Positions 3,044 through 63,018 of a stretch of DNA of 64,000 nt are shown here, one piece after another; the stretch's first letter is position 1, and each line of letters starts with the position of its first letter. A program made the translations under genes and the position numbers. The stretch lies in NCBI GenBank assembly GCA_013122435.1, contig WYDT01000025.1, positions 6,535 to 70,534 on the forward strand, in the 5' to 3' direction. Source of the stretch: Chloroflexi bacterium AL-N1. Lineage in GTDB: Bacteria > Chloroflexota > Chloroflexia > Chloroflexales > Roseiflexaceae. The notes beneath the pieces were generated by a model. That model ran no database searches and had not been told where the DNA came from. It was given only the letters and a program-made list of their open reading frames with translations.

Positions 3044-3073
3044 AGAGCACAATTACCAGAAACCAATCGATTA

Positions 3074-3131
3074 AGACCTCCGCAATGAGTCAGGATATAT
3101 GATCTGGCTATTAGCGGAGGTCTGTTTGTGT
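3074..3131 (+). terminator. Candidate intrinsic terminator after sucC: 10-bp stem AGACCTCCGC/GCGGAGGTCT with a large loop, then GTTTGTGT.
   Basis: Perfect 10-bp inverted repeat at 3074-3083 and 3114-3123, 30 nt after the sucC stop, followed by a U-rich run. The 30-nt loop lowers confidence. Confidence 0.3.
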
Positions 3132-3843: not shown

Positions 3844-3884
3844 AGACCTGAGAGAACTTCGATATTCTTCAGGTCTCTTTTGTA
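3844..3884 (+). terminator. Strong hairpin plus U-tract (intrinsic-terminator-like) 18 nt upstream of the 3902 ATG; possible end of an sRNA or a leader attenuator.
   Basis: AGACCTGAGAGAA-cttcgata-TTCTTCAGGTCT gives a 12-bp stem with one bulge. It is followed by CTTTTGT. Confidence 0.45.
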
Positions 3885-3901
3885 TCTGTGGAATTATACA
3901 C

Positions 3902-4970: not shown

Positions 4971-5067
4971 TCCTTAGCACACGAGCCAGCTTCATATCAA
5001 ACGACTGAAGTTGAGCAGGTTGTAGCAACGTAGGCTCCGATAGTTGCCGCATCTCTGCCTGGAACAT
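4882..5067 (-). CDS. Hypothetical 61-aa ORF; possibly the N-terminal fragment of a frameshifted gene together with 4647..4970
   Basis: ATG-initiated ORF that overlaps the following ORF in the -1 frame. No family recognised. Confidence 0.2.
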   Translation of the reverse strand: MFQAEMRQLSEPTLLQPAQLQSFDMKLARVLRIASSSDDVLGTIVHYKGTNGWWFIIKTVL

Positions 5068-5090
5068 AGGGCGTGACTCGTAGACAGATC

Positions 5091-5168
5091 CTACATTGCC
5101 TGATTGGGCTTGAACTCCATTAGTTGCGCTTTGAATAATCTTAACACTACCAGGTTTATGATGGTCAT
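5091..5168 (-). CDS. Candidate 25-aa small protein MTIINLVVLRLFKAQLMEFKPNQAM with a near-perfect SD
   Basis: AAGGAGA lies 8 nt upstream of the ATG on the minus strand (rc of 5176-5182). The ORF sits directly downstream of the Cys-rich protein gene. Not in the supplied ORF track because it is under 60 aa. Confidence 0.25.
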   Translation of the reverse strand: MTIINLVVLRLFKAQLMEFKPNQAM

Positions 5169-5219
5169 AATTTACGTTCTCCTTCTATATAATTTAAGTA
5201 AGATCTCATACTGATGTAT

Positions 5220-5630
5220 TTAACATCCTGCGGCATTACAGCTTAGATACGTTTTTGTATAGCAAAATCTGCCATCTGAACTATCATAGCAATCGTAAGC
5301 TACCAATTTGTCAGGAATACCTTGATTGCAATGTGAAGGCCTGGGACAAGATCCACAACTTCTCCTACACATTGTAACAGAGCCACCATAGTGACAATTA
5401 ACCGACTCACACCCAACTCCAGCTAGCGCTTCCCTGGTGTTTTGCCTACTCAGCAGTCCTGCACCTGCCAACACACCACTTAGTTTGAGCAACCACCGTC
5501 GGGAAGGACTGCTGGGCGGAAGAAGTTTGTAGGCCAACTGCGTGTGAGTACCCTCGCGGTGCATCAGTTGCCACACCTGCCATGCCGAACGGGGGCCAAT
5601 GAGTAACCCAAGGTGGAGGGCAGCATGCAT
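5220..5630 (-). CDS. Small secreted cysteine-rich protein with a twin-arginine (Tat) signal peptide; the true start is probably an internal Met (MHREG...)
   Basis: Tat signal: SRRWLLK consensus, then hydrophobic LSGVLAGAGLL and an ALA-G cleavage site. The ~66-aa mature part carries 12 Cys (CESVNCHY..CRRSCGSCPRPSHC..DCYDSSDGRFCYTKTYLSCNAAGC). It shares a frame with the upstream DCC-fragment gene, separated by one TAG. Confidence 0.45.
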   Translation of the reverse strand: MHAALHLGLLIGPRSAWQVWQLMHREGTHTQLAYKLLPPSSPSRRWLLKLSGVLAGAGLLSRQNTREALAGVGCESVNCHYGGSVTMCRRSCGSCPRPSHCNQGIPDKLVAYDCYDSSDGRFCYTKTYLSCNAAGC

Positions 5631-5651
5631 CCCACGCCACGCCTGAACCTG

Positions 5652-5834
5652 CTACGCGTCTACAAAGACAAGATAGGTGCCATGGTCCGCAGGATACACA
5701 CGATCGAGCAATGTCCTGGCTGTGTCATCGTGAATACTCACCACAGTGATTTGATCGCCAACCACCGCTTGCACCTGTCTGGCGAGTCGGCTACAAACAG
5801 AACATCCCGCGTCGAACACTAAGTAGCGTTCCAT
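5652..5834 (-). CDS. DCC-family (DUF393) thiol-disulfide oxidoreductase-like protein, N-terminal half only (60 aa)
   Basis: MERYLVFDAGCSVCSRLARQV... fits the DUF393 N-terminal consensus (vvfYDGdCplC..., then ITVVSIHDD...). AAGGAAAGGAA SD upstream of the ATG at 5834. The ORF stops after ~60 aa, whereas family members run 110-140 aa. Confidence 0.45.
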   Translation of the reverse strand: MERYLVFDAGCSVCSRLARQVQAVVGDQITVVSIHDDTARTLLDRVYPADHGTYLVFVDA

Positions 5835-6106
5835 GATTCCTTTCCTTTCATGTAAAAATAGATTATCTACATACCTAAACACACTAAATCGTATAAATTC
5901 AGCGTAAGTAAGCCATTTTTATATAGACATCATATTTTGAAATAAATACACATTTTCCACATCAAATATGATCAAATAGCAGTAAAGTAATGATATAACA
6001 ATGAAGAACAAATGATAAGGAGATAATCGTAACAACTCACGAGAGAGAAACAATCTTCATTATTAGTACGAGGGTTTAGCCTCGTGCAGCTTCAGTCCCG
6101 TGTAAC

Positions 6107-6136
6107 AGGAAAAAACGCCCGAGGGGAAACCCTCGG
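6107..6136 (-). terminator. Rho-independent terminator of the acc-mcr-pcs transcript
   Basis: Minus strand, 40 nt after the pcs stop: CCGAGGG-TTTC-CCCTCGG then GCGTTTTTTCC. A 7-bp GC stem with a tetraloop and a U6 tract. Confidence 0.7.
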
Positions 6137-6175
6137 ACGCATGTGTTCTCAAACATCTTGTCAGATTGTGGAAGA

Positions 6176-9100
6176 CTACGTGGCGTTGGTCATTTCTTCC
6201 CAGGCTGCGTAAAGATCGTCCTTCGTCTTCAAACCAGCACGTGGCAAGGCATGATTGACGATGTATGTTGCACCGGCGTGACGGTTGTCCCACATCTCCT
6301 GGTGGGCCCGTGCCAATTCATCCCACTCAACCAACTCTGGCTCGGTGATGCTGAGGAGACCTGCGCTGATTTCGTCGTTCAGCCGCAGAATTTCGTGGGC
6401 ATTACAGAGGTGTGTTCCCCAGATATTGGCCGTCGGCATGTAAATGCGCCGTTGACGCATCCAGATCTGTGGTGCAAAGAATGAATAGCGCTGGTTATCC
6501 ATGTTTTCGTAGTATATAATCCGACCAGTGTAAGGTTTCACCAGCATCGAACTTACTGCTAATGTATCATGGCCAGCACGCTCAATGATGAGATCAGGAT
6601 ATCCACGTGGGTTTTCTGCGCTACGCAACAACGATCCAACCGCACCCCCCAGAGGTTTGAAGGTTAGGTCATTGAAGTCCCGTATCGCATCCTTGAATCC
6701 TTGGAGATCGACACGCGCTTCAGGCAATTCCGGCATAGTTTCAGGCCAATCAAATTCATCACCATAACGGCGCTTAAGCGTCTCTACACTGACCACACCC
6801 TTGAGTGAAGCACCAAAGCCAAGACTTAGCACAAACTCACGTTGAGCATCAGTATAGGTAGCCACAACAATACGCGCGCCTTTGACACGAGCCGCTTCAA
6901 TGGCTTCCAGCCCGACCTGATCAACCAGATGATCCGCCTGTGTGGCGCTTGTTTGACCTGGTTTCACATCTTTGGCATCTACACCATAGTAAATCAAGAC
7001 CGCTTCACCGGCACGAAGATTGGCTCGCTGGAGCATCTCAATCGGGTCTACGGCGCCTGGCTTACCTAAAAATGTAAAGTGATAGCCACTACTCGCACCG
7101 TAGAATGTCAACGTTGGAATATGGCCATCGTGTGGTTCGCCAAGTATTTGGAAGCTACGAGGGAAGGCTTGCTCACCTGCGTGTGAGACGGCATAGTCAG
7201 CCAGATGTCCATCATTCTGAGCACGGAAGTCATCGAGCAATGCACGCCCGGCCTGTTCCCATGCCCGCCACTGCGCCGGATTTGCAGGAACCCGTGTAAA
7301 GCAATCCTTGTAACGTGGATCTTTCCGGTTAAGGCTCCCCTGTGCCCCAGCCTGGCGAATCGTCTCGGCCCGTGCAGGACTACTCACCATACCCATTGCA
7401 CGAAGACCATTACGCGTTGAGGAGTGTACCGCATCCAGTCCGGTACCTGTGGCTGCACCTTCAATGAAGATCGTACGTCCTGGCTGGATTTGCAGGATCG
7501 TGAACAGTGCGCGATAAATAGTTCCCAGATTCAGAATATAGCTTCCGGCTGACTCAAGCGACAGGTCGGGCGGCAATGGCATACACTGTGGTGCCTGGGC
7601 AAGCATAAACTGTTGATGGGAGCCATCTGGTGTATTGTAGCCCTGAATACCGAAGTCGGCAAACATCGGATCGAGGCCCTGCATTGGCGAAAGGAGATCG
7701 CTCTGACCACTATAGATCGTGACCAGATTACCAACCTTGAGACGGCCCTGCCGACGCGCCTCTTCGCCGAGTGCCGCGATGAGGCCAATCCCACCACTAC
7801 CACTAACATGCCAATCACGATCGTGTTCGTCAAACTGCGACACCGGTATGCCGGTAATGGCCCAAATGTCGTTAAAGTTGACTTCGCTGGCAAGCACATA
7901 GATCAGCGCCTCATTAGGACTCGGGCTTTCCACAGGAATCACAATCTGATGTTCGGTTTCCTCTGGATCGCCATGCATGTAGGCACCAGTCTGTTCATCA
8001 CGAACAATGGCCTGTGCATACTGCCAATTTGGCATGGGGGTAATCCCAGGGAAGAAAGGTGTCCCAATCGGTAACAGTTCGCCATCTTCGATAAACTGTC
8101 GTTCGTCCTGTGTGCCAAGGAGCGCACGACGTGTTGGGAGCGGCGCACTGCGCTTGTCGAGGAAGTCTTGAATCCCACGTTTGCCGCCTTCAGGATCGAC
8201 GACTGCCTCAGCAAACAGATACGCTTCTCGCCCCAGGCCCTGCACCAATCCGTTGGTCAAACCAAAGCGCATGGCTTCGAGCGCACGATCAACCGCTTTG
8301 GTACGGCCTGCCCTGTGTGACTGCTGCACAATACGCTCGATCCGAGGATGCCGTAACAGCGGTTCAAATTCCTCTGTCACAAACTGTTGGGCAGGAGCCT
8401 CCCACGAAGCTGTGCGTGTTTTGCGGCGCTCAAAAGCGTTGGCAAGCACTGATGCTTTCTGTGTGGGGCCATGCGCTGATCCGTTGGTTGCTTGTGCGGT
8501 ATCGCCAAGCTGCTTGCCATATTCGCGCACATACGCGGTAGCCACCGAAAGCGAATCCTGGTTGGCCTGTGCAACAATATCCACCAACCCAATGTCATGG
8601 GCTTCCTGCGCGCTGATATTGCGTCCACCAAGAATGAGTTCGAGTGCGGTTAACAACCCGTCGGTGCTGCTATTGGCGTGGAGCAAACGTGGCAGACGTT
8701 GCGTGCCACCATACCCCGGCAGCAGGCGCAGATTAATCTCTGGCTGACCAAATTCGGCGTGCATATCTGCAACACGATAGTGGCATGCAAGCGCAAACTC
8801 GAGACCACCACCCAGAGCAACACCGTTGATTGCCGCAATACAAGGCTTGTTCATCTGCTCAATCTTGCGGAAAGCCGGATGGGCGTTGTTCGGCAACGCG
8901 ATGGCATCCTCGACCGAGTGCGTCTCCTCGAGAAGCTGGCGGATATCAGCACCGGCCACAAAACTCTTGGTTCCCTGACCCGTGAAGACGATGGCTTTCA
9001 CCTCATCACGCCGCGCAAGATGGTCGACAATGGTATTGAGTTCATCAAGCGAGCGCTCATTTAAGGCATTGACCGGCGGGTTCGTAATCGTTACCACCGC

Positions 9101-11767
9101 CATTTTGGCCTGGCGTTGCGATCGCTTGGCACCAATGGGATGATACTCGATCAGGAAGTAGCGGTAGCGTTCGAAAATCTTCTGCTCCGCAGCCAGAGTC
9201 TGGAGTCGTTTCCAGTCATCGATCTTACGCTTGATCTCCTCCAGGATCTCTGGATTCCGCAGCGATGTCGTGTCTCCCAGATCTTCATCAAGCATCATGT
9301 TGCGGAGAAAGCGCCGCATGTACTTGCCGCTGCGTGTTTCGGGAAATGCGCTTATCTCGATATAATCTTCGGGCACGGCAACCACACCCTTTTCCGCACG
9401 TACCAGTTCACTGAGTCGACGACGATCCTCAATCGACAACTTGCGGCTGGCGGGCGTCAGGATAAATGCGACTGGTGTCAGACCTTTCTCACGGTGTGGA
9501 GCACCCACCACAATACAGTTACCCACCGGCGAGTCGGCGTTTTGTTGCTTGTCGCGGAGGATCGCCCCCTCGATTTCTTCGGTTCCCATACGATGGCCAC
9601 TGACGTTGATCACATCGTCGCTGCGTCCGTGGAGCGAGAAACTGCCATCTTCGTATTTCATAGCAAAGTCGCCCTGAATGTAGGCCCACTTGCCATCCGG
9701 CCCCTTGCGCCAATAGGTCTGTTCAAAACGCTCCGAGTCGCCATGCCACGCTGGGATCACCCCATCCCCAGTCATCCTGAAATTCTCTGTATCGCCCCAG
9801 ATCGTACGTGCAAGATAGGGATAGGGCGTGGTGATCACGATCTCACCTTTTTCCTCATAATCAGCAACACGATACTGATGGCTGGTCTGATCTGTGTCTG
9901 TTGCGCCGTCGTTCGTCCATACATCACCGACAACCCAGGGCAGCGGATAGGTGCGGGCATCGGCGCGTAAAGGGAAGTCGGCATTACCAAAGAAATGCGT
10001 CCAGACAATACCACCGTGCTCAGTGGCCCAGTAAGAATTGATATATTGTGGCGACATGACGTCCATACCGAATTGCTGGACCGCCGGACTGACGGGTTCC
10101 GCGCAGAAGGTACATACACGCAGCGTACTCATATCGTACTGACGCACATCAGCAACATTCTGCGAGTCGGTCATCACGCTTTTGAGAAAGGTGACACCGG
10201 CTTTAAAGATGTTGACACCGTAGCGTTCGATAATGCTGGAAAATCGACCAGAACTGGGGAAAACTGGTGCGCCCTCTGCAATAATACCAGTGCAACGGCT
10301 ACTGAGTGTGGCCGTAATCATATAACTCTGACCAGTAATCCAGCCCGGATCGGCAATCACATAGACGACATCGCCTGGTTCCGCATCAAAACTAACACCC
10401 ATTGTGTGGGTCAGGCCCGCCGTGTAGCCACCGTGTACATGGACAACCCCCTTCGGCTTGCCGGTACTACCACTGGTGTAGATGATAAACAGCGGGAAAT
10501 CGGCATCAAGTGGTTCTACCGGACTGGTGGCATACAGGGCTTTGATAAATTCAGCAGTTGGAAGATTGAGCAATTCCTGCTCATTCTGAACCTGAACCCC
10601 CGCGAGACGCGCTTGCTCCAGAATACCCTGCATCGCCGTCTCAAGCAGATCGTGGCTCCAGACATCGCGCTCAGGCCGCCACAAAATATCGTGGCCAGTG
10701 TGGCGCACCACAATGACCTTGTCGACTCGCGGCGGTGCACCAACCAACGCCTGTGCAATGGCTGTACGAATACGTGATTGTGTGGCCGCATCGAGCGTAC
10801 TCAAATGATCGAGGGCCCGCCCGACGCCGCGCATCACATCGCTGCGTTCAATCGTTACTTCGCCCTTGATGGTGCGATCAACCTCTGCCAGGATATGTTC
10901 AGCGGCCTGCTTGTCGACAAGCATTGTGGCATCACTATGCAGCGTTGTACGAACCATCTCCAGCGCAACCTCAACGGGAATAAACTTGTCGAGCGCCTGG
11001 TCGGTGTACACCTCTTTGTACGTCACGATCTGGGCATTACGATAACCACCATCACTGGTGATGATGACACGTGCACCTGCGTTGTGGATGCGGTCGCTCA
11101 ACGTTTTATCGCTAAACCCACCAAAGACCGGCGTGTAGATAATACCCAGGCGTTTGGCTGCCTCTGTGTAATAAATCTGCTCAACGATGTTCGGCATGTT
11201 CAGCGCGATACGATCACCCCGCTGTAGCCCAAGGTTACGTAATACCTGAGCCGCCTTCACGACTTCGAGCAAAAGGCGCTTGCGGGTAACCGGGTAACTC
11301 ACCAGCGGACCACCACGCCCCTCATTAAGCGAGGAGTCCCAGCGGTCACCCTCAAAGTAGAAGGCCGCTTCGTCACCATGGCCCATCAGCACATGGCGAT
11401 CTACCTCGTTGAAACAGGCGTTGGTCAATCCACCCTCAAACCAGCGATAGAATGGCGCAGCATCGTCATTGAGCGACCTTTTCCATGGAAGATGGTTTGC
11501 ATTGTATGGAACATCAACTTCGGCCCCAGTTTTGGCATGCAGTCCGGTCCAGCGTTGTTGTTTTTCATCCCAGGTAATCCAGGCATCAAGTGTGCGGTCG
11601 TACCAGTGGATGGCCGAGCGAGCAATGGCACCCTGAAATACACCGGGGTTGTCCACAAATGCCTGGCGTTGTGCTTCCCAATCAGCGCGTGTACGAATTG
11701 TATTGATACGGGGTGAACGTAAGCGTTCAGCCCGTTCTTGTTCAAAAGAAGAAGTGGTTTTACTCAT
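6176..11767 (-). CDS. pcs: Propionyl-CoA synthase, trifunctional (acyl-CoA synthetase - enoyl-CoA hydratase - enoyl-CoA reductase), 3-hydroxypropionate bicycle
   Basis: 1863-aa ORF. AMP-binding motif IIYTSGSTGKPKGVVHVHGGY. Central crotonase segment VVTITNPPVNALN...FVAGADI...GVALGGGLEFA. C-terminal MDR-type reductase. Near-collinear with Chloroflexus aurantiacus Pcs from memory (WATEHGGIVWTHF, GRSDDVINVSGHRMGTEEIEGAIL). Confidence 0.9.
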   Translation of the reverse strand: MSKTTSSFEQERAERLRSPRINTIRTRADWEAQRQAFVDNPGVFQGAIARSAIHWYDRTLDAWITWDEKQQRWTGLHAKTGAEVDVPYNANHLPWKRSLNDDAAPFYRWFEGGLTNACFNEVDRHVLMGHGDEAAFYFEGDRWDSSLNEGRGGPLVSYPVTRKRLLLEVVKAAQVLRNLGLQRGDRIALNMPNIVEQIYYTEAAKRLGIIYTPVFGGFSDKTLSDRIHNAGARVIITSDGGYRNAQIVTYKEVYTDQALDKFIPVEVALEMVRTTLHSDATMLVDKQAAEHILAEVDRTIKGEVTIERSDVMRGVGRALDHLSTLDAATQSRIRTAIAQALVGAPPRVDKVIVVRHTGHDILWRPERDVWSHDLLETAMQGILEQARLAGVQVQNEQELLNLPTAEFIKALYATSPVEPLDADFPLFIIYTSGSTGKPKGVVHVHGGYTAGLTHTMGVSFDAEPGDVVYVIADPGWITGQSYMITATLSSRCTGIIAEGAPVFPSSGRFSSIIERYGVNIFKAGVTFLKSVMTDSQNVADVRQYDMSTLRVCTFCAEPVSPAVQQFGMDVMSPQYINSYWATEHGGIVWTHFFGNADFPLRADARTYPLPWVVGDVWTNDGATDTDQTSHQYRVADYEEKGEIVITTPYPYLARTIWGDTENFRMTGDGVIPAWHGDSERFEQTYWRKGPDGKWAYIQGDFAMKYEDGSFSLHGRSDDVINVSGHRMGTEEIEGAILRDKQQNADSPVGNCIVVGAPHREKGLTPVAFILTPASRKLSIEDRRRLSELVRAEKGVVAVPEDYIEISAFPETRSGKYMRRFLRNMMLDEDLGDTTSLRNPEILEEIKRKIDDWKRLQTLAAEQKIFERYRYFLIEYHPIGAKRSQRQAKMAVVTITNPPVNALNERSLDELNTIVDHLARRDEVKAIVFTGQGTKSFVAGADIRQLLEETHSVEDAIALPNNAHPAFRKIEQMNKPCIAAINGVALGGGLEFALACHYRVADMHAEFGQPEINLRLLPGYGGTQRLPRLLHANSSTDGLLTALELILGGRNISAQEAHDIGLVDIVAQANQDSLSVATAYVREYGKQLGDTAQATNGSAHGPTQKASVLANAFERRKTRTASWEAPAQQFVTEEFEPLLRHPRIERIVQQSHRAGRTKAVDRALEAMRFGLTNGLVQGLGREAYLFAEAVVDPEGGKRGIQDFLDKRSAPLPTRRALLGTQDERQFIEDGELLPIGTPFFPGITPMPNWQYAQAIVRDEQTGAYMHGDPEETEHQIVIPVESPSPNEALIYVLASEVNFNDIWAITGIPVSQFDEHDRDWHVSGSGGIGLIAALGEEARRQGRLKVGNLVTIYSGQSDLLSPMQGLDPMFADFGIQGYNTPDGSHQQFMLAQAPQCMPLPPDLSLESAGSYILNLGTIYRALFTILQIQPGRTIFIEGAATGTGLDAVHSSTRNGLRAMGMVSSPARAETIRQAGAQGSLNRKDPRYKDCFTRVPANPAQWRAWEQAGRALLDDFRAQNDGHLADYAVSHAGEQAFPRSFQILGEPHDGHIPTLTFYGASSGYHFTFLGKPGAVDPIEMLQRANLRAGEAVLIYYGVDAKDVKPGQTSATQADHLVDQVGLEAIEAARVKGARIVVATYTDAQREFVLSLGFGASLKGVVSVETLKRRYGDEFDWPETMPELPEARVDLQGFKDAIRDFNDLTFKPLGGAVGSLLRSAENPRGYPDLIIERAGHDTLAVSSMLVKPYTGRIIYYENMDNQRYSFFAPQIWMRQRRIYMPTANIWGTHLCNAHEILRLNDEISAGLLSITEPELVEWDELARAHQEMWDNRHAGATYIVNHALPRAGLKTKDDLYAAWEEMTNAT

Positions 11768-11919
11768 AGTTATGTGACCTACTTTTTTCTTATCTCTTGG
11801 CTATCACATCTGTAAATCTAATCATATTTTAGGATCGTGTTTTCACAACATACAGAGGCATAACAGTAGCTTGTATACTGCTACAGCCCCTGTAAATTGT
11901 AGCTAAGCAGCCTGTAACA

Positions 11920-14900
11920 TTACACCGTAATCGCATTCCCACGATAAATACGTGCACGATAACGACTATCACTTGGCTTTGGTAACGGTGCGCTTGTAAG
12001 CAGCACAGCGTGTACAAAACGGATCAACTCCTCTTCTTCCTCAACCGCATTCCGTGGCTCCTCGCTGCGGGCACGTCGCGTGAGATCAACCTGATTGACG
12101 GGGACGTGTGGCATGGTTCGTTCACTTTCCGCTCCAACTGTTGCAGTCAATGCGTGCAATGTGGTCTTGACAAAGTTGGCCAGCGCAAACTCTTCCTCGG
12201 TGGAGCGTGCCGTCGTTTCCGGTGTGATTAAGACCAGTTGAGCGCCATCCATCAGTGAGATTTTCTGGGTGACCCGAAAATGGTGGGTGATTTGATCTTC
12301 CACCAGATCACTGAATTCCTGCTCGCTCAATACATCGGACCAATCGCCATCTTTCGCTACCAGCGCACGCTGTGGTATAGAGCGAAAGGGCATGCTTATC
12401 ACCGGGCCAGGGCTCCCGAAAGTCGCACGGGCAGCATCAATGCCCTGCTCAATATTGCCATTGGTCGCAATAGCGCACAACCGCCCACTATCGCGATGCG
12501 CTGGCATTGTCGCCATGATGGCATCAGCAGCTTCAGCGGTCTCGGTGAGCAACACAACCCGTTTGGCATTCAAATCATCCAGATAGACCTGCGTGAGCCG
12601 TATTAAATGCTTTTGCATATGCTCACCAATAAGATACACAACATTATCACGGAAACGAGCAATACGTTCTGGACGACCTTTGCCGAATAACTCACCCTCA
12701 GTCACCGTACGCTCAAATCGTAGTCCACCAGACGGATGGAATGTTTCACCACTGACATTATGATCGGCCAGATAGTAAATCGTTGCCTTGGCCACTTCCA
12801 GTTCAGTGGGCATACGCTGCAGATAGAGCATGCCAATAATCCCTTTGTGCACCTTCTGCGCCTCTCGCTCAATTTGCTCAAAGGTAAAGAATGGCTCCGT
12901 CGGGATGTTGGTAAGTTGTGGGATAGGAATAGATGTCGTCGTAAATGACTGTTCAGAGATCGTTTCAGTACGTCGACCGGAGGTTGTGTCAGGTGGAGAG
13001 GATGGGGTTGCTACCGCCACGGCTTCTTTCGGCAAGATCTCCATTGTGACACCCTCTTTGGCATTGTTTTCCTGACTGTAGTGGAGATAGCCACTGGTTT
13101 CCAGTCGGCGTATCAACTTTTGGGCAATCTTTTCGTTCATGAGGTACATACGCGATGATCCAGATGGATCACTACGTTCCCAGATGGTTGCGGCCATACG
13201 CTGTAACGAATCAGGGATATCGCCAACGCTACGCATCAACATCATCACATCATTGGCAAATATGAGCGGGAGCATATCAGCAATAGAACGACCAGTTGAG
13301 CTATGTGCCTCAACTATCGCAGCATAGAGCTCGTTCAAACGCTTGTTTTGCAGAATCAGCCGTCCTCGACGGGCGAACAAGCCCGGTCGCTCACCGGTGC
13401 CGCGCAAACGGTCTCCTTCAACTGGACCAGGGGCAAGGGCATTGATCTGGACTTGCGGTCCCAGGAAGCGCGCGAGTGTTTCAACCATGGCACGCTGCCC
13501 AGCTTTACTCACGGCATAATCAGACCGGTTTGGATAAGGGATGGCGACATATTTTTCCCCACCAAAATAGGACGAAACGTTCAAAATATAGCCACGTTCC
13601 TGAGCTTTCATCAATGGCGCCAGTTTGCGAATTAGGGTGTAATTGCTAATGAGATTGGCCTGCAGTGTGTGCCGCCAACTTTCCAACGGCATGTCGATCA
13701 CCATCTCTTCCGCACCAGAAATTCCAGCATTATTAAAGAGGTAATCCACATGACCAAATGTTTCGATAGTGTACTCCGCTAAGCGCTCAAGGTCCTTTGA
13801 GTCAGCCACGTCACAGTTCGCAATCACCCGCACACGTTTTTCAGCATTGGGATAACCTGCATCGTGTACTTCACGCACAATCGCCTCACGAGCTTCATTC
13901 AATTGGTCGGCACCACGCGCCGCAAGCATGACATAGGCACCACTGAGAGCCAACAGTCGCCCAATCTCACCACCAATACCAGAACTGCCCCCTGTAACCA
14001 GAGCAACCTTATCACGATGCAGATTGTAGAGATTCTCCGCCCAATCAGGAAGCGATCGGTGTGCACCTCTCATCGGTGCAATCTGTTTTGGCAAGACCAG
14101 GTTGATTTCTTCAATATCACGTTGGTTTGCCAACAGATCAGCAATCCACATGTGAGCATAGTCGCGACTCTTATCGCCATCGTTAGTGTAACGAATAAGC
14201 TGATGAGCACGAATCGCGGTCGATGTTTGCGTTCCATTAGACGCATGGCGAGCCGCGTCAAGCGTAGACTCATGGCGCCATACACGTACTAATTGCTCCA
14301 GAGCTGCACTCAGCACTTTGGCGTAGACATTATTGTGTCCATCATCACCATTGCTCGCAAAGATGATGTGTGGTGTCTGCACTGGTGGTCTGTTCTGCCA
14401 GTGTCGCATCAACTGACTCGCCAGACTCATTACACCAGTAATTTCATCTTCGAGAAATTGACTGATGCTAGTGTCATCAGCCTCGGTAAGGTGTGCTGAG
14501 TTTTTCGATGATACCGTGTGATAGTGCGAAATGTTATGTGCGGGTAACACCACCACATGATTTGGATCACCACAGGTGGCACGCACGCGATCAAGCGCAA
14601 TGCCCACACTCGATGGATCGTGTGGTGAGAGGCAGCACAATAGCAATTCCTGTGAGTCCATTGACTCCTCGACTGCATCCAGCGTGGTACCATCACGGAA
14701 GGCCAATGCTACTTTGGCACCATAGGTCTTGAGTGTTTGTGCAAGGTGCAACGAATCATCGATTTGATCACCAGCACAGATAAGCACAACCTCATCGACA
14801 AATTGAATGTTGCGTCGTTCTGGCCATGCCACCAGCGTGGTGCGACTCTCGACAGGCACATCCATTCCGTTCGTCACCTCGAATATATGGCCACTGTATG

Positions 14901-15720
14901 CGGCAGCCTCATCACTCCCAAGGAAAACAACGCTATCTGCTACATCAACCGGCTTGGGAAAGCCTTTCTCCAACTCACCTGTACTACCTGTCCGGCTGAG
15001 ACGCATAATGTCGAAAAAACCATTGGCTGTCGTCCCATCAGGAATGCCTTTAAGTTCATCCATCGACTTGAAGACGGTACGGATACGCTCGCTGTCAATC
15101 GGACCTGGGTAGATAGTATTCACACGGATGCCCTGAGCACCAAGTTCACGTGCACACTGCTCACTCAATGCGTTAAGTGCCGCTTTGGGGACAACGTAGG
15201 GGATACGTCCATAGTAATCCGTCCTTGAAAAAATCGTTGAGACATTCACAATGCTGCTGCCAGGTTGCATATGAGGGGCAACTGCACGCGTCATATTCCA
15301 GGTGATACTGAGCAGATTACCCACTGCCTGGCTGAGTGTTTCTGTGTCGGGGCTTCGGAGATCGTTCGGTTGTATCGGAACATCAATAAGACGACGACGA
15401 GGTCCAGCAGTTCCAGCATTGTTCACCAGAATATCAATACGGCCCGCCTTCGCGATGATGGTATCAATGCCCATACGTACCTGCTGCATATTACTTCCAT
15501 CAAACGCAACAGTAATGATCCGTTCGGGTGAAATCTGTTCACCCTCGATCAGCCGGTGGCGATACTGCTCCAACTTAGCTTCCGTACGTCCTGTAATAAC
15601 GACTGTGGCACCTTCAGCAAGGTAGCACCGCGTAATGATTTCACCGATATTACCAGCACCGCCGGTAATGATAGCAACTTTGCCGTTTAGTCGCCCTTGA
15701 CGACCTTCTTGTTGTGACAT
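11920..15720 (-). CDS. mcr: Malonyl-CoA reductase, bifunctional (NADPH-dependent malonyl-CoA to 3-hydroxypropionate), 3-hydroxypropionate bicycle
   Basis: 1266-aa ORF. N-terminus GKVAIITGGAGNIGEIITRCYLAEGATVVITGRT (SDR Rossmann). Second SDR at KVALVTGGSSGIGGEIGRLLALSGAYVMLAARG. C-terminal end ...RYRARIYRGNAITV matches the C. aurantiacus Mcr terminus. Strong SD GGTGAGGAGG upstream. Confidence 0.9.
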   Translation of the reverse strand: MSQQEGRQGRLNGKVAIITGGAGNIGEIITRCYLAEGATVVITGRTEAKLEQYRHRLIEGEQISPERIITVAFDGSNMQQVRMGIDTIIAKAGRIDILVNNAGTAGPRRRLIDVPIQPNDLRSPDTETLSQAVGNLLSITWNMTRAVAPHMQPGSSIVNVSTIFSRTDYYGRIPYVVPKAALNALSEQCARELGAQGIRVNTIYPGPIDSERIRTVFKSMDELKGIPDGTTANGFFDIMRLSRTGSTGELEKGFPKPVDVADSVVFLGSDEAAAYSGHIFEVTNGMDVPVESRTTLVAWPERRNIQFVDEVVLICAGDQIDDSLHLAQTLKTYGAKVALAFRDGTTLDAVEESMDSQELLLCCLSPHDPSSVGIALDRVRATCGDPNHVVVLPAHNISHYHTVSSKNSAHLTEADDTSISQFLEDEITGVMSLASQLMRHWQNRPPVQTPHIIFASNGDDGHNNVYAKVLSAALEQLVRVWRHESTLDAARHASNGTQTSTAIRAHQLIRYTNDGDKSRDYAHMWIADLLANQRDIEEINLVLPKQIAPMRGAHRSLPDWAENLYNLHRDKVALVTGGSSGIGGEIGRLLALSGAYVMLAARGADQLNEAREAIVREVHDAGYPNAEKRVRVIANCDVADSKDLERLAEYTIETFGHVDYLFNNAGISGAEEMVIDMPLESWRHTLQANLISNYTLIRKLAPLMKAQERGYILNVSSYFGGEKYVAIPYPNRSDYAVSKAGQRAMVETLARFLGPQVQINALAPGPVEGDRLRGTGERPGLFARRGRLILQNKRLNELYAAIVEAHSSTGRSIADMLPLIFANDVMMLMRSVGDIPDSLQRMAATIWERSDPSGSSRMYLMNEKIAQKLIRRLETSGYLHYSQENNAKEGVTMEILPKEAVAVATPSSPPDTTSGRRTETISEQSFTTTSIPIPQLTNIPTEPFFTFEQIEREAQKVHKGIIGMLYLQRMPTELEVAKATIYYLADHNVSGETFHPSGGLRFERTVTEGELFGKGRPERIARFRDNVVYLIGEHMQKHLIRLTQVYLDDLNAKRVVLLTETAEAADAIMATMPAHRDSGRLCAIATNGNIEQGIDAARATFGSPGPVISMPFRSIPQRALVAKDGDWSDVLSEQEFSDLVEDQITHHFRVTQKISLMDGAQLVLITPETTARSTEEEFALANFVKTTLHALTATVGAESERTMPHVPVNQVDLTRRARSEEPRNAVEEEEELIRFVHAVLLTSAPLPKPSDSRYRARIYRGNAITV

Positions 15721-15824
15721 TATAGGACCTCCTCACCATAATTTATGAGGTATACAAAAATGTAAGGAATCTCATTTTTACGAAGTGAAATGACTGCTAA
15801 AACGAAAGTGTGTTGCTTGGTAAA

Positions 15825-16694
15825 CTAACTTGCAAACCCGGATACGCTCGCCAATGAATAATGTGCAGTATCTTGATAATGCCCAATTGCACGATACTTT
15901 GCGTATCGTAACGATAAAAGTGCTGACATACTGAGCTCTTGAAGTTCTTGAAGGTTGTCGACAATCGCTCGCCGCAACGAAGTCATCGTGGACACATAAT
16001 CAGTGTGTGCACCCCCCGGCGGTTCGGGGATCACCTGATCAACAATGTGAAGTTCATGCAACTCTGGTGCTGTAATCCGCATCACCTGAGCAGCTTCCGG
16101 CGCTTTAGTGGCATCACGCCAGAGAATAGAGGCCGCTGCTTCCGGTGATGCCACCGAATAGATTGCGTTTTCGAGCATGAATAATGTATCAGCGACACCA
16201 ATAGCCAGTGCCCCACCACTACCGCCTTCACCAATCACACAGGCAATAATCGCTGTTTGTAGTTTGGCCATGGTCCAGATACTCTCAGCAATGGCATTGG
16301 CCTGTCCGCGTTGCTCTGAGTCTTGGTTAGGATTGGCACCCGGCGTATCAATCAGACATAAGACCGGGAAACCAAATTTTTCAGCGTGCTGAAAGAGCCG
16401 CAAGGCTTTACGATATCCTTCAGGATGCGCCATGCCAAAATTATGCTGAACATTTTCGCAGGTGTGACGACCTTTCTGATGACCAATGATCAAGATAGTC
16501 TGGGTATCAAAGGTAGCAATACCACCAATAATGGCTTGATCGTCACCAAAACGACGGTCACCATGAAGTTCGACAAAATCCTCACATAATCCGTGGATGT
16601 AATCCAACGCCCGTGGCCGTTGAGGATGGCGTGCCAACTGAACGCGGTCCCACGGACTGAGGGTCTGGTATTCCATATTTGTTACTGCATTCAT
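15825..16694 (-). CDS. accA: Acetyl-CoA carboxylase carboxyltransferase alpha subunit
   Basis: Collinear with E. coli AccA: LARHPQRP..DYI, IIGHQKGR, NFGMAHPEGYRKALRL, VIGEGGSGGALAIGV, SVASPEAAASILW. Start chosen at ATG (MNAVTN...), 31 nt after the accD stop. The track's upstream TTG at 16793 would overlap accD. Confidence 0.85.
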   Translation of the reverse strand: MNAVTNMEYQTLSPWDRVQLARHPQRPRALDYIHGLCEDFVELHGDRRFGDDQAIIGGIATFDTQTILIIGHQKGRHTCENVQHNFGMAHPEGYRKALRLFQHAEKFGFPVLCLIDTPGANPNQDSEQRGQANAIAESIWTMAKLQTAIIACVIGEGGSGGALAIGVADTLFMLENAIYSVASPEAAASILWRDATKAPEAAQVMRITAPELHELHIVDQVIPEPPGGAHTDYVSTMTSLRRAIVDNLQELQELSMSALLSLRYAKYRAIGHYQDTAHYSLASVSGFAS

Positions 16695-16725
16695 ACAATC
16701 AAATTTCTTTTTATTTCCACAATGA

Positions 16726-17673
16726 TTAGGCCACTGAACGCACTGCCGGCAAACGCCCTTCTCGATTTCTGAGGTTTGTAGTTTCCAGAACACGGTCGGT
16801 ATGGCTGTACATGCGCGCTAACCTGGCTAGCGTCACACGGATGTCGTTGCGTGACACAATCATATCGACCATGCCATTTTGCAACATGAACTCAGCCGTT
16901 TGGAAGTCGGCAGGCAGTTTTTGACGAATGGTTTGTTCAATCACTCGTTTACCAGCAAACCCGATGTTAGCACCTGGTTCAGCAATGATAATATCGGCAA
17001 CAGATACATAGGATGCCCTCACCCCATCATAACAAGGATCGACCAGAAGCGAGATATGTGGTTGGTGGGCATCGGCAAGTCGCGTGAGCGCCATGGTCAT
17101 TTTGGTCATCTGCATCAGCGAAATGAGCCCCTCTTGCATACGGGTACCACCACTGGAATTAATCGTCAACAAGGGTATTTCACGGTGTGCAGCCCGTTCG
17201 GCTGCTCGCGCTGTCTTTTCACTATAGACACTTCCCATGGAAGCGCCCATGAAACGAAAATCACAGATAGCGACCACCATGGTAAACCCATTAATGGTCC
17301 CCTGTCCACTGAGCACTACATCAGAAAGAGACGTTCGATCCTGAGCTTCACGCAACTTATCGGCATATGACGCATCAAGTGAGACAAATCCTAACGGATC
17401 AGTCGGTCGCAGACCTGTGTCATATTCCTGAAACGAACCCTCATCGAACAGACGCAACCATTCATGTCCCTTCAAGCGCATGTGATAGTTGCAATGGGGA
17501 CATACACCGAAATGGTCATCAAGTTGCTTGCGATAGATGAGTTCACGACACGAGGAGCACTTGACCCACAGGTTATCGGGCAGGTCAGACAGCGGTGATT
17601 GTTGGACCACCGTAAAGCTCTTGCGTGTACGCTGAATAAGCTCTTTCAAAGTAGCCTCCTCAAAGTCTATCAA
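16726..17673 (-). CDS. accD: Acetyl-CoA carboxylase carboxyltransferase beta subunit
   Basis: N-terminal Zn ribbon CSSCRELIYRKQLDDHFGVCPHCNYHMRL. Carboxyltransferase fold with SMGSV, GGTRMQEG. TTG start. Confidence 0.85.
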   Translation of the reverse strand: MIDFEEATLKELIQRTRKSFTVVQQSPLSDLPDNLWVKCSSCRELIYRKQLDDHFGVCPHCNYHMRLKGHEWLRLFDEGSFQEYDTGLRPTDPLGFVSLDASYADKLREAQDRTSLSDVVLSGQGTINGFTMVVAICDFRFMGASMGSVYSEKTARAAERAAHREIPLLTINSSGGTRMQEGLISLMQMTKMTMALTRLADAHQPHISLLVDPCYDGVRASYVSVADIIIAEPGANIGFAGKRVIEQTIRQKLPADFQTAEFMLQNGMVDMIVSRNDIRVTLARLARMYSHTDRVLETTNLRNREGRLPAVRSVA

Positions 17674-18052
17674 GTGCCTGACTAATCTGAGGCATCCGAG
17701 CCTCGGGTCACAAAACTAGAAAAACGTTGGAAAAACGCTTGGTGATCTGGTAACGATTATAAAATTCCGATTTCAACTTTCTTCACAAAGTGTACCAATA
17801 TCCGTTTGTGAAAGAGACCACCAGAAGGATAGGTTTTAGAACAACATCGGAGGGGAAGTTCCCCGTCTTTTGGGGGGGATGCACATGGAAACAAAAAGAG
17901 GTTACGAAAAAAAGCCCTTTGTTATGCGGTATCTATGGACAAGGTGTGGTTAGTGCTAATTGTGCAACAACCCATCATCGGTTCACTATACCTATCGAAA
18001 CGGAGGTTTGAGACGCATACACGCAGCAGCCTTGTGATCCTCTTAGACAACT

Positions 18053-18967
18053 TTATGAGAATGGCACAACCTTGATGGTCGTGCCTAGATGATGCTCATG
18101 CGCTGCTGTAACAGTGATGGCGTCATCATAAGCATTACTTGTTTCGACACACACCATCTCTGTGTACTCCTGCTCGCCAAAGTCACGCATGCGCTGCGCT
18201 TTTGCACTTCAGGGGTTCCACACAACCGTCGATTGGCTCCCCGTCTTAACGATATGAATATGTCGTTGTAACTCTGAGTCATCAATACGACACGTGGCAT
18301 CGGTTGCAAGATAGACCTTATCTATTTCGTGAGAGATAGCAATAGGACCATCCTGTACTTTCCGTTGTCCCGAGTCAAGCTGATCGATATAAGTGGTTGC
18401 TTCCAGACCATGGATGGTGATGTGCGAAATATGGCTAACAGTAAAATAACTATGCAATGCGCCGCTGTAGGAAAAAGTCGTGGTCCCTGTGTTCCGTACG
18501 CATAGCTCAATCTCGAGTGATGCTCCAACCGTGATGGTAATCTCAAGTTCAAAGACATGGGGCCAGAGTGTTTGTGTTTCGTTGGTATCACGTAATCCCA
18601 GTCGTATACGGGTTGCTTCGTTCGCGACAACAACGGTTTCCAGAACTGACCAGATCGATGTGCGTGCAAATCCGTGAGATGGTTTGTATGTATCTGTTGG
18701 ATGTGGCCCGAACCATGGCCAACACACCGGCACACCACCACGCATAGGCTTGCCGACTTCGTAAAAACTCTGTGCGCTTGACCACAGTACTGGTGCTTGG
18801 TCATGTGGTTGGTATGACAAGACGTGGCCACCATAAAGCGCAACAGTTGCGTGGGCATGTGTATTTCGAATAGCGGCTACTGGTAGTCCACCAGGGCCAT
18901 CGACAAAAGAGAGTTGGTGCTCAACACCAAACTGCCTGTTCAGTTCTTCTAGCTGTGGAAAAAGCAT
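18053..18967 (-). pseudogene. D-hexose-6-phosphate mutarotase / aldose-1-epimerase family (YeaD-like) gene interrupted by an in-frame TGA at the conserved Trp of the WNPW motif
   Basis: The track ORF 18209..18967 (252 aa) ends ...STVVWNP-TGA. The same frame stays open 52 more codons to a TAA at 18053, encoding ...SAKAQRMRDFGEQEYTEMVCVETSNAYDD..., which matches the YeaD C-terminus (WNPW...YKTMVCVEAANA). The TGA occupies the conserved W codon. Confidence 0.6.
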
Positions 18968-19054
18968 GTGCTACCTTATCACTTGGCTGACTTGCACACT
19001 CAATTCTACCATATTGCAAAGAGGGACCAACAATACACTCTGTTTATCATATTA

Positions 19055-20947
19055 CTATGACAAGCTTGATTGGCTATCAGACGCAGATGGCTGTAGAAGT
19101 GGCTGTGAGGGGGGATGAAAATCGTCCTGATCAACGGCCAACAACGATTGAGAGTCAAAAGAACAGGAAAGGCTATTTGGCAATCGGACGGTAAATGTTG
19201 ATCCTTCTCCCATGGTACTAACAACCGTAATGTCACCATCCAGCATCTGACAAAGATGACGACTGAGCGAAAGTCCGAGACCTGTTCCACCATACCTGCG
19301 GGTAGTTGATGAATCGGCCTGTGTGAATGCCTCGAAAAGATAGGAGATTTTGGCGGGATCGATGCCGATACCAGTGTCAGTAATGTTGAACATGATCCAC
19401 GCTGTGCCATTCATCTCTTCACGTTGCACCTCAAGCGTTACTGTACCACGCTCAGTAAATTTGGCTGCATTACTCAATAAATTGAACAGAATCTGGCGAA
19501 TCTTGGTGGGGTCACTTGACATCGTACCAATATCTAATGAGCAGTTGACGATAAATGTATTTGCATACGATTCGACAATTGGGCGAGTTGTCGTGATGAT
19601 TTCGTCCACAAGCATACTAATATCAAACTCATCGATAAAAAGTGCCATTTGCCCAGCCTCAATCTTGGAAAGGTCGAGCAAGTTGTTAACCAGTGCCAGA
19701 AGATGGTGTCCGGCAGACCAGATAGCAGAGAGATCTTCGGTGAGTTGTACGGTTTCAAGATCATCGGCCTGTCGTTGCAGCAGTTCACAATAACCAATGA
19801 TAGTTGTCAACGGGGTACGCAATTCGTGGCTCATCGTACCGATAAAAGAATTTTTGGCAATGTTGGCCGCTTCAGCCATCTCCTTGGCTTGGTAGAGGAT
19901 TTGTTCATTCTGCTTTCGTTCGGTGATATCACGTACAACAATGAGATATCCTGTGTGCACCCCTCGTTTATCCTGAAGCTGGGTAATGCGCGTGTCGAAT
20001 ATAAGCGGTTGCGAACCATGGTCTATCTGCAATTCCACGCGTGCATCTTGTGTGCCCCACAGGTAGTCGAATCTGTCATGATAGCGTGCAAACAACAGCT
20101 CTGCTGGTTTCCCAATCATACTTCGGTTGGGCTGTCTCAGGATAGTGATGGCTGCTGGATTGATGTCAACCACGCGCTTCTGTGGATCGAGAACGATGAC
20201 ACCATCACGAATATTTTCAATAACCACCTCACGTGCAATTGGTATGATGTCAAATAATTGATAGCGAAACAAGCCCCACCCCAGAATAATGGCGGTTAAC
20301 GTGAATGCAAAGGGTGTCATATCAATTGAGTCAATAGGACTTAGACCAACAAGATAGATCATATTCCCAAGCCAGGGAATGCACCCACCTATAAGCAGTG
20401 TACCCGCTTGTTTGCGTTGTTGGGGTGTTGATCGCATAAACGTTTGAGCAATAGTAACTGTGCCATACAGAAATAGGATGTATGAATACGCCGTGTGAAC
20501 CCAGAACAAAGGCCCCATCTGAGCATCTAGTATGGTTAACTCACCACTGTTTACCAGGCTGATATTACTGCGAAATAATCCGTGAAAGCTATTTGTCCAG
20601 ACACATAACAAAGTCACAATGGGCATAATTGATAGCAGAATAATAGTTCGCCGCGTCAATTGCTGCCGATCATCTGCGTATTGCATTGCCAGAGTCACCC
20701 ACGCTACCGGAACAACCACAATTCCTATATAAATGACATCTGTCCAAAAAAGCTTTGTGGTGAGATCGCCACTTACCAAACTCAAAGCATATCCCAACGT
20801 CCATACAGTTATGGCGAGGGTTAAGATCGCAAATGGGCGCGACCCCAGTGCTGATCGATAGCGACTTGCGATCAGTGTAAGACCGAGTGATATAAGTGCT
20901 GCACCCATAAGTGGAATAATAACCAGAAAGTACTGCCAGTACATCAT
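19055..20947 (-). CDS. Sensor histidine kinase with an N-terminal multi-pass (7TM-type) membrane sensor, PAS domain, HisKA and HATPase_c
   Basis: About six N-terminal hydrophobic helices. PAS-like REVVIENIRDGVIVLD. H-box SHELRTPLTTIIGYCELL. N/G-boxes LLSNAAKFT, DTGIGI, GGTGLGLSL. Confidence 0.8.
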   Translation of the reverse strand: MMYWQYFLVIIPLMGAALISLGLTLIASRYRSALGSRPFAILTLAITVWTLGYALSLVSGDLTTKLFWTDVIYIGIVVVPVAWVTLAMQYADDRQQLTRRTIILLSIMPIVTLLCVWTNSFHGLFRSNISLVNSGELTILDAQMGPLFWVHTAYSYILFLYGTVTIAQTFMRSTPQQRKQAGTLLIGGCIPWLGNMIYLVGLSPIDSIDMTPFAFTLTAIILGWGLFRYQLFDIIPIAREVVIENIRDGVIVLDPQKRVVDINPAAITILRQPNRSMIGKPAELLFARYHDRFDYLWGTQDARVELQIDHGSQPLIFDTRITQLQDKRGVHTGYLIVVRDITERKQNEQILYQAKEMAEAANIAKNSFIGTMSHELRTPLTTIIGYCELLQRQADDLETVQLTEDLSAIWSAGHHLLALVNNLLDLSKIEAGQMALFIDEFDISMLVDEIITTTRPIVESYANTFIVNCSLDIGTMSSDPTKIRQILFNLLSNAAKFTERGTVTLEVQREEMNGTAWIMFNITDTGIGIDPAKISYLFEAFTQADSSTTRRYGGTGLGLSLSRHLCQMLDGDITVVSTMGEGSTFTVRLPNSLSCSFDSQSLLAVDQDDFHPPSQPLLQPSASDSQSSLS

Positions 20948-62451: not shown

Positions 62452-63018
62452 ATGGCTGAGGCCGATTCTAACGAACAAACGCAGACATCACACGATGATT
62501 TTGGTTTGAGTGCGGTCAAAGAACTGCTTAGCCTACTCCATCAAACAGATGTGACAGAGGTGAAGATTGAGCGCGGAGATATGAAGCTCCATGTCAAACG
62601 GGGAACCGCACCACAGAGTCCGACCCCACTACTGGTGACGCCATCGCTTCCATCAGCGATTCCGGCCACACCACAAGAATTGCTACCACCACCACCCTCA
62701 TTCCAATCAACAGCAACTCTAGGCGAAACACCAATGATGTCAGCCTCTGATAGCGATGTGCCACCGGGAAGCACAACTATTACTGCACCTATGGTGGGAA
62801 CATTCTATACTACACCATCGCCAAAAGATCAGCCCTTTATCCACGAGGGCGATATCATCAGTCCCAATGATGCAGTAGGTATTATTGAGGCCATGAAAAT
62901 CATGAATGAGATCGTCTTTGAAGGAGAAACGGTGGGAAAGGTCACACGTATTCTGGTATCCAATGGTCAACCAGTAGAGTATGGTCAGATTCTTATGATT
63001 GTCGAACCAGCAGTATAG
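62452..63018 (+). CDS. accB: Biotin carboxyl carrier protein of acetyl-CoA carboxylase
   Basis: Pro/Ala-rich linker, then a biotinyl domain carrying IEAMKIMNEI (the EAMKMMN biotin-attachment motif). AAGAGGGA SD. Confidence 0.8.
   Translation: MAEADSNEQTQTSHDDFGLSAVKELLSLLHQTDVTEVKIERGDMKLHVKRGTAPQSPTPLLVTPSLPSAIPATPQELLPPPPSFQSTATLGETPMMSASDSDVPPGSTTITAPMVGTFYTTPSPKDQPFIHEGDIISPNDAVGIIEAMKIMNEIVFEGETVGKVTRILVSNGQPVEYGQILMIVEPAV

Follow-up and report, generated by a model that had tools for sequence, protein, structure and literature searches.

The 64-kb stretch of the Chloroflexi bacterium AL-N1 genome analyzed here, called the window throughout, carries accD, accA, mcr and pcs, four genes predicted to act in the 3-hydroxypropionate (3-HP) pathway of CO2 fixation, lying head to tail on the minus strand. 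The initial annotation had placed the four open reading frames (ORFs) at 16726-17673, 15825-16694, 11920-15720 and 6176-11767, respectively, all on the minus strand, and the ORF list bore this out. With the start of accD revised as explained below, the genes are as follows.

16726..17649, minus strand: accD, acetyl-CoA carboxylase carboxyltransferase beta subunit (307 aa from TTG 17649; profiles, Shine-Dalgarno sequence and gene calls)
15825..16694, minus strand: accA, acetyl-CoA carboxylase carboxyltransferase alpha subunit (289 aa; profiles and independent gene calls)
11920..15720, minus strand: mcr, assigned as bifunctional malonyl-CoA reductase (1266 aa, four tandem SDR domains; matches to solved structures)
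6176..11767, minus strand: pcs, assigned as trifunctional propionyl-CoA synthase (1863 aa, comprising acyl-CoA ligase, enoyl-CoA hydratase and enoyl-CoA reductase)

The listed ORF of accD opens at TTG 17673. A second TTG, at 17649, lies 5 nt past a GAGGAGG Shine-Dalgarno sequence, and because of this spacing and of independent 307-aa gene calls, 17649 is the likelier start. For accA, the mechanical ORF opens at GTG 16793; ATG 16694 (289 aa) fits both the start of the Pfam/NCBIfam profile and the independent calls. Gene calls made independently in other assemblies gave products of 307, 289, 1266 and 1863 aa for accD, accA, mcr and pcs, and the same arrangement recurred in 14 contigs that come from independent assemblies of other sequencing runs, L081 and L082 among them. 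The gaps between the genes measure 31 nt (accD-accA), 104 nt (accA-mcr) and 152 nt (mcr-pcs).

The gene identities proposed in the initial annotation held, and both large ORFs aligned end to end with characterised Mcr and Pcs proteins. The window Mcr aligned over its full length with PDB entry 8hjw (1219 aa; 1322 bits), which we take to be the Chloroflexus aurantiacus enzyme, and in two stretches, residues 10-880 and 936-1266, with entry 8hi4 (1229 aa; 1538 bits). Because its 1229-aa length and residue numbering fit the Roseiflexus castenholzii MCR (RfxMCR) of PMC10470521, 8hi4 was taken to be that enzyme. Pfam recognized two adh_short stretches of the catalytic SDR type, and the protein shares the full-length architecture of four tandem SDR domains with the solved MCR. 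Functional residues have been tested by mutagenesis in the Roseiflexus enzyme (PMC10470521), and alignment placed their counterparts in the window Mcr at these positions.

SDR1 catalytic triad: RfxMCR T165/Y178/K182, window T162/Y175/K179 (offset +3)
Malonate-semialdehyde ligands: RfxMCR Y172 and R175, window Y169 and R172 (offset +3)
SDR3 catalytic triad: RfxMCR S731/Y749/K753, window S717/Y735/K739 (offset +14)
Proton relay: RfxMCR Y743-R746, window Y729-R732 (offset +14)
CoA/malonyl-CoA ligands in the extra-domain and SDR4: RfxMCR R785, L795, R799 and R1164, window R771, L781, R785 and R1201 (offsets +14 and -37)

Every one of these catalytic and binding residues was invariant in an alignment of 16 Mcr sequences, and on this conservation the mcr product is almost certainly a bifunctional malonyl-CoA reductase. 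The protein had been described as longer than its C. aurantiacus counterpart; the extra length is real, and it consists of an insert in a hypervariable loop that represents ordinary variation within the family.

12916..13080, minus strand: lineage-specific, Ser/Thr/Pro-rich Mcr insert of 55 residues (881-935), between the two stretches aligned to the Roseiflexus MCR

This insert stands in place of 6 residues (893-898) of the Roseiflexus enzyme. Among the 16 aligned sequences the window shares it only with the 89%-identical P0002, and a few others carry shorter inserts at the same loop site. A protein of "Chloroflexi bacterium AL-W" matches the window Mcr with 100% identity; this MAG is one of five bins from Lake Alchichica microbialites that were described in 2020 as Candidatus Lithoflexus mexicanus (PMC7486959). 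The genome of Ca. Lithoflexus is about 8.3 Mb in size with 49% GC, and the lineage, which is without chlorosomes, is sister to Roseiflexineae plus Kouleothrix (PMC7486959).

The pcs product is a single polypeptide with its domains in ligase-hydratase-reductase order (Pfam AMP-binding, AMP-binding_C, ECH_1 and ADH_N/ADH_zinc_N). It aligned end to end and in one stretch (residues 27-1857 against 26-1840; 2274 bits) with the solved structure 6eqo, presumably the PCS from Erythrobacter sp. NAP1. Direct reading of the sequence revealed intact ligase motifs, SGSTGKPK (432), GRSDD (714) and PETRSGK (809), as well as the GGGLE and QPE glutamates of the crotonase part and the glycine-rich NADPH-type motif GAATGTG; these motif definitions come from the superfamilies in general, not from mutagenesis of PCS. 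Together, these features indicate that pcs almost certainly encodes a trifunctional propionyl-CoA synthase. Here too the length, initially noted as greater than in C. aurantiacus, falls within the ordinary range of homologues in related loci (1823-1917 aa); comparison with those homologues revealed no window-specific insertion as a cause of the extra length. The length differences of Mcr and Pcs suggest no new function.

AccD scored 332.8 bits against the TIGR00515 accD equivalog (cutoff 317.45) and contains the Pfam domains Zn_ribbon_ACC and Carboxyl_trans. AccA scored 415.9 bits against NF004344 (cutoff 357) and 383.2 bits against TIGR00513 (cutoff 319.3), and matched Pfam ACCA at E = 3e-123. 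Both carboxyltransferase subunits are thus recognized above curated equivalog cutoffs, AccD with its Zn-ribbon. The biotin carboxyl carrier protein is encoded at a distance from them.

62452..63018, plus strand: accB, biotin carboxyl carrier protein, 45 kb from the cluster and after efp (TIGR00531 BCCP, 126.8 bits; cutoff 115.2)

Its product carries the EAMKIM biotinylation motif. The gene that follows accB is xseA-like, and accC is not adjacent to accB. A tblastn search with the Roseiflexus-type accC of locus L008 as query found no match to accC anywhere in the 64-kb window. With accB 45 kb away and accC outside the window, the genes for acetyl-CoA carboxylase occupy at least three separate sites. 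Of this heteromeric enzyme the cluster thus specifies only AccA and AccD, the carboxyltransferase half, and AccB and AccC are encoded elsewhere. The initial annotation had spoken of the "CO2-fixing carboxylase subunits", a wording that was right about the identity of AccA and AccD and imprecise about their role, since they are the carboxyltransferase subunits alone.

The likely contribution of the cluster to metabolism follows the order of its genes. AccD and AccA would form the carboxyltransferase of acetyl-CoA carboxylase, which yields malonyl-CoA; the bifunctional, NADPH-dependent Mcr would reduce malonyl-CoA to 3-hydroxypropionate; and the trifunctional Pcs would convert 3-hydroxypropionate to propionyl-CoA. 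Jointly, the four genes would cover the first three steps of the 3-HP bicycle, and their enzymes almost certainly turn acetyl-CoA into propionyl-CoA in the 3-HP pathway of CO2 fixation, as judged from the domain and residue comparisons above. First-cycle 3-HP genes had already been noted in metagenome-assembled genomes (MAGs) of Ca. Lithoflexus (PMC7486959).

To place this arrangement among relatives, 80 loci obtained from an Mcr-alignment scan of a genome collection were screened by tblastn with the four window proteins, and the following gene orders were found.

accD-accA-mcr-pcs on one strand: Roseiflexus MAGs L004, L005, L007 and L008; Chloroflexota L.E.CH.5 (L006); and L018
mcr-pcs, without acetyl-CoA carboxylase genes nearby: three Chloroflexales MAGs (L002, L009 and L054)
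accD-accA-pcs-mcr: Chloroflexia MAG Co_metawrap_2249 (L019)
mcr alone: Chloroflexus, Oscillochloris and Chloroploca loci
pcs-mcr: Gemmatimonadota and Proteobacteria

The Roseiflexus-type loci have the same four genes in the same order on one strand as the window, and the Roseiflexus proteins are about 57% (Mcr) and 72% (Pcs) identical to those of the window. An apparent operon of these genes in Roseiflexus sp. RS-1 is a description that reportedly goes back to Klatt et al. in 2007. In PMC5459899, which cites Klatt 2007, acetyl-CoA carboxylase, mcr and pcs are given as the apparent operon RoseRS_3199-3203, with transcripts that increase by day. The initial annotation had set the linkage against the arrangement in C. 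aurantiacus. Given the identical order in Roseiflexus MAGs and other genomes and the apparent operon of RS-1, the linkage is not unusual among Chloroflexales as a whole, nor is it special within the suborder closest to this organism. The statement that mcr and pcs lie apart in C. aurantiacus was correct: the genes of this bacterium are dispersed, with accA/accD at Caur_1647/1648, mcr at Caur_2614 and pcs at Caur_0613 (PMC3150298). C. aurantiacus has the same enzymes and pathway steps, its Mcr being about 51-52% identical to that of the window, and in the loci of Chloroflexus, Oscillochloris and Chloroploca neither pcs nor accDA occurs within 10 kb of mcr. The signature enzymes are adjacent in Gemmatimonadota and Proteobacteria as full-length homologues (45-48% identity for Mcr, about 60% for Pcs), but in reversed order, with pcs before mcr, and without acetyl-CoA carboxylase genes within 10 kb, whereas the window has accDA. 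The Chloroflexia MAG L019 resembles the window in linking accD and accA to both signature enzymes on one strand, and differs in their order.

The closest known arrangement, that of the Roseiflexus-type loci, differs from the window in several respects. In these loci accC directly follows pcs (L004 12911-14302, L005 17653-19047, L006 18167-19528 and L008 19804-21207), giving five genes, and its product has the Pfam domains Biotin_carb_N, CPSase_L_D2 and Biotin_carb_C; in the window and in L018, a terminator stands in this place and accC is missing as fifth gene. An accC in fifth position presumably accounts for the five locus tags RoseRS_3199-3203. In L008, accC is followed by an aldehyde dehydrogenase gene. 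The mcr-pcs spacer is 29-35 nt long in the Roseiflexus-type loci and 152 nt, with a hairpin, in the window, and between accA and mcr there are about 277 nt in L008 and 104 nt in the window. The upstream neighbor is an ABC ATPase gene in the Roseiflexus-type loci and an aldose-1-epimerase-like gene in the window. We considered the latter as a fifth operon gene and rejected it, as it is unrelated to the Roseiflexus upstream gene. Judged by these comparisons, the cluster corresponds to the Roseiflexus 3-HP operon in a form with four genes and without accC, the linkage itself being already known.

The non-coding DNA upstream of accD provides a further link to the Roseiflexus loci. This 535-nt region is poorly conserved near the upstream gene; closer to accD, over the final ~200 nt (about 17890 onward), it is nearly identical to L018, the 88%-identical relative. 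Alignment with related loci delimited a conserved promoter-proximal block and, within it, the following elements.

17781..17881, minus strand: conserved promoter-proximal block upstream of accD
17881-17861, minus strand: hairpin CATCCCC..GGGGA
17836-17822, minus strand: box AAACCTATCCTTCTG (AAACCTRTMCTTCYG)
17797-17789, minus strand: TGGTACACT, extended -10-like element (TGnTAYACT)
17813-17805 and 17789-17781, minus strand: inverted repeat TTTCACAAA / TTTGTGAAG, bracketing the -10-like element in the Lithoflexus lineage

The block aligned among the window, L018, three Roseiflexus MAGs (L004, L005 and L008) and L006, and a TTCAnAAA element is also among its shared parts; L007 ends inside accD, which places its upstream region outside the comparison. 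The alignment extends to the Roseiflexus-type loci, yet their upstream neighbor gene is a different one, so the window shares a homologous upstream control region with the Roseiflexus-type operon. The window contains a single copy of the AAACCTRTMCTTCYG box, as does every cluster-bearing locus with upstream sequence; all copies lie upstream of accD, and the 82 loci compared contain no others. The conserved AAACCT box is absent from L019. The block may well represent the conserved promoter/operator of the unit. A structured 5' leader of ~130 nt upstream of accD was also considered and rejected, as the window sequence folded no better than shuffles (z = +1.17) and the consensus energy of six sequences was merely -1.84 kcal/mol; a scan of the whole window against Rfam returned no family at threshold.

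At the other end of the cluster, the initial annotation had noted a strong intrinsic terminator after pcs. The terminator was confirmed, with its position shifted from 6107-6136 to the coordinates below.

6105..6140, minus strand: rho-independent terminator after pcs (stem 6140-6115, U-tract 6114-6109)

It comprises an 11-pair stem with 8 G-C pairs, a 4-nt loop and a U6 tract, and folds at -21.1 kcal/mol (z = -4.66), an energy reached by none of 200 shuffles. In L018 it remains fully paired despite base differences in the loop and arms (-21.8 kcal/mol, z = -5.03). Terminator-like matches over 5000-19500 occurred at chance density (15 compared to 12.3 +/- 4.0 in shuffles), and the only strong site among them was the one directly past pcs. 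The weaker minus-strand matches in the unit (6889, 10411, 15851 and 17027) all lie inside coding sequence, and the terminator scan found no canonical intrinsic terminator in the three intergenic gaps of the unit. A second small minus-strand hairpin, ACGAGG..CCTCGT, without a U-tract, lies at 6040-6085, ~35 nt downstream of the terminator; its pairing is kept in L018 (about 19590-19620) through a two-sided change to ACGGGG..CCCCGT.

The gap between mcr and pcs contains another secondary structure.

11845..11900, minus strand: intercistronic stem-loop immediately past the mcr stop codon (core of 18 pairs with further outer pairs; whole-gap fold z = -1.83)

The equivalent in L018 folds at -25.7 kcal/mol (z = -4.43). 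Strong hairpins that are not homologous to it occupy the same place in the other long mcr-pcs spacers, those of L002, L009 and L054, and no hairpin was found in the 29-35 nt gaps of the Roseiflexus-type L004, L005, L007 and L008. Because the stem-loop is without a U-tract, we favor the view that it stops transcription partially or shields the 3' end of a processed transcript. Acting as a partial stop or mRNA-stability element, it would probably tune the mcr:pcs ratio. A small hairpin over the mcr Shine-Dalgarno sequence was examined and set aside as not significant (z = -0.6 and -1.0).

Arranged in this way, accD-accA-mcr-pcs plausibly forms one terminated unit, a reading consistent with the operon reported for Roseiflexus, and we infer that the four genes are co-transcribed. 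Transcription would most likely run from the conserved promoter region ~130 nt upstream of accD to the hairpin after pcs and yield an mRNA of ~11.7 kb. It is conceivable that the upstream block is the operator/promoter of a dedicated 3-HP regulator, with the lineage-specific hairpins setting the mcr:pcs ratio, but we regard this more specific proposal as tentative and somewhat doubtful.

Taken as a whole, the locus is very probably the Ca. Lithoflexus mexicanus copy of a vertically inherited, Roseiflexus-type 3-HP gene cluster that is expressed as one transcription unit. Several observations weigh against this explanation: promoters could fit into the spacers of 104 and 152 nt; a promoter-like match (TTGTGA-16-TATGAT, 9/12) lies at 11848-11821 in the mcr-pcs gap, directly past the hairpin; the promoter proposed upstream of accD has a poor -35 region, and a generic promoter scan made no call for the upstream block; accC, accB and propionyl-CoA carboxylase are all outside the unit; and homologues of second-cycle genes were recovered only from bulk metagenomes, not from the MAGs (PMC7486959), so that the complete bicycle is not established for Ca. 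Lithoflexus. The long spacers and the match between mcr and pcs would suit an arrangement in which mcr and/or pcs have spacer promoters of their own, the stable hairpin at 11845-11900 is a true terminator and the genes are regulated separately; other Chloroflexales loci with mcr-pcs and no accDA, or with mcr alone, indicate that independent expression is workable. We consider such separate units unlikely. The promoter-like match, which would correspond to the internal promoter suggested in the initial annotation, is not conserved in L018, and matches of this kind occur in the region at chance density (16 found compared to 16.5 expected from shuffles), the hairpin being the conserved feature of the gap. 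Moreover, this hairpin, which is without a U-tract, was not called as a terminator, and only 29-35 nt separate mcr from pcs in L004, L005, L007 and L008, in a set of genes that has been reported as one operon.

The vertical component of the preferred explanation, in which the unit and its promoter-proximal DNA would descend from a common ancestor with Roseiflexus, has to be set against the recent acquisition of a mobile or horizontally transferred cassette. Such an origin could be read into the composition of pcs, whose GC (0.54) and GC3 (0.55) are the highest of the 40 genes in the window (means 0.49 and 0.45; about 1.8-2 sd above) and into the in-frame stop codons carried by genes on both flanks, but it is very improbable. 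GC and GC3 of accD, accA and mcr are near the window means, tRNAs and meaningful flanking repeats were not found, and the cluster flanks contained no mobility genes (integrases, transposases); as a candidate foreign island, the region was negative in the composition, tRNA, repeat and mobility-gene tests alike. Protein identity to the window falls from L018 to Roseiflexus, then Chloroflexus, then other phyla, matching species relationships, and the non-coding upstream block held in common with Roseiflexus argues for vertical inheritance of the whole unit and indicates that the unit predates the Roseiflexus-Lithoflexus split. A separate question is whether the genes serve autotrophic CO2 fixation at all. 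They might instead form a partial pathway for mixotrophic assimilation or redox balancing (acetate, 3-hydroxypropionate, propionate), as in many Gemmatimonadota and Proteobacteria with the pcs-mcr pair only, a pair that is widespread in MAGs of these phyla. The restriction of the Ca. Lithoflexus MAGs to first-cycle genes, with second-cycle genes in bulk metagenomes, and the description of the organism as a mixotroph (PMC7486959) agree with this possibility, and no propionyl-CoA carboxylase, epimerase, mutase, SmtAB, Mcl, Mch, Mct or Meh was found in the 64-kb window. On the other hand, the 3HP bicycle was scored as present and Calvin-cycle genes as absent in Ca. Lithoflexus (PMC7486959), and the linkage to the carboxyltransferase genes of acetyl-CoA carboxylase, together with the promoter block shared with Roseiflexus, points to a Roseiflexus-like role. 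On balance, a purely partial pathway appears improbable to us.

Both genes that flank the cluster are interrupted. Just upstream, an aldose-1-epimerase/mutarotase-like gene (18055-18967, minus strand) has an in-frame TGA at 18211-18209 where L018 has TGG (Trp), and the 51 codons past the TGA have stayed conserved, most of the differences being synonymous. Independent assemblies give an identical 252-aa call, which indicates that this TGA is not an assembly error, and because TGA ends 8 of the 40 window genes, it serves as an ordinary stop codon in this DNA. Directly past the pcs terminator, a Cys-rich gene with an N-terminal CxxC motif (5220-5834, minus strand) is split by an in-frame TAG at 5654-5652 into pieces of 60 aa and 136 aa. 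In L018 the homologue is one uninterrupted ORF, and similarity to it remains high beyond the stop; the split also occurs in the independent assembly L081. The interruption of both flanking genes points to recent pseudogenes or to read-through.

Further out on the upstream side, past the interrupted mutarotase-like gene, lies a 7TM-PAS sensor histidine kinase gene (19055-20947, minus strand), about 1.4 kb from accD. L018 has an ORF that matches this kinase in size and position only, and L008 has ABC-transporter genes there instead. On the other side, a GAF hybrid sensor histidine kinase gene (29-1822, plus strand) lies about 4.3 kb downstream of pcs. The region 1907-3900 (plus strand) holds sucC, for the succinate-CoA ligase beta subunit (above its equivalog cutoff), with no sucD alongside, and after it an AT-rich stretch of about 860 nt without an ORF in any forward frame. 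A HAMP-STAS gene at 55314-56567 (minus strand) is a composition outlier, with GC 0.41 and GC3 0.28 compared to window means of 0.49 and 0.45.

The cluster leaves the current understanding of the 3-HP pathway and its evolution unchanged. What it adds is modestly new, namely the promoter block shared across lineages, the hairpin between mcr and pcs and the loop insert in Mcr, none of which would surprise a specialist. The upstream block offers a concrete cis-element with which the regulation of 3-HP CO2 fixation could be tested and, if it does prove to be the operator of a dedicated regulator, would, along with the lineage-specific hairpins that set the mcr:pcs ratio, become the first cis-regulatory element defined in the 3-HP pathway. 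For pathway engineering, the locus could provide a natural, mesophilic accDA-mcr-pcs cassette of moderate GC content. For the biology of the lineage, it would add Ca. Lithoflexus, a mesophilic inhabitant of microbialites, to the organisms that have the entry steps of the 3-HP bicycle gathered in one compact unit.

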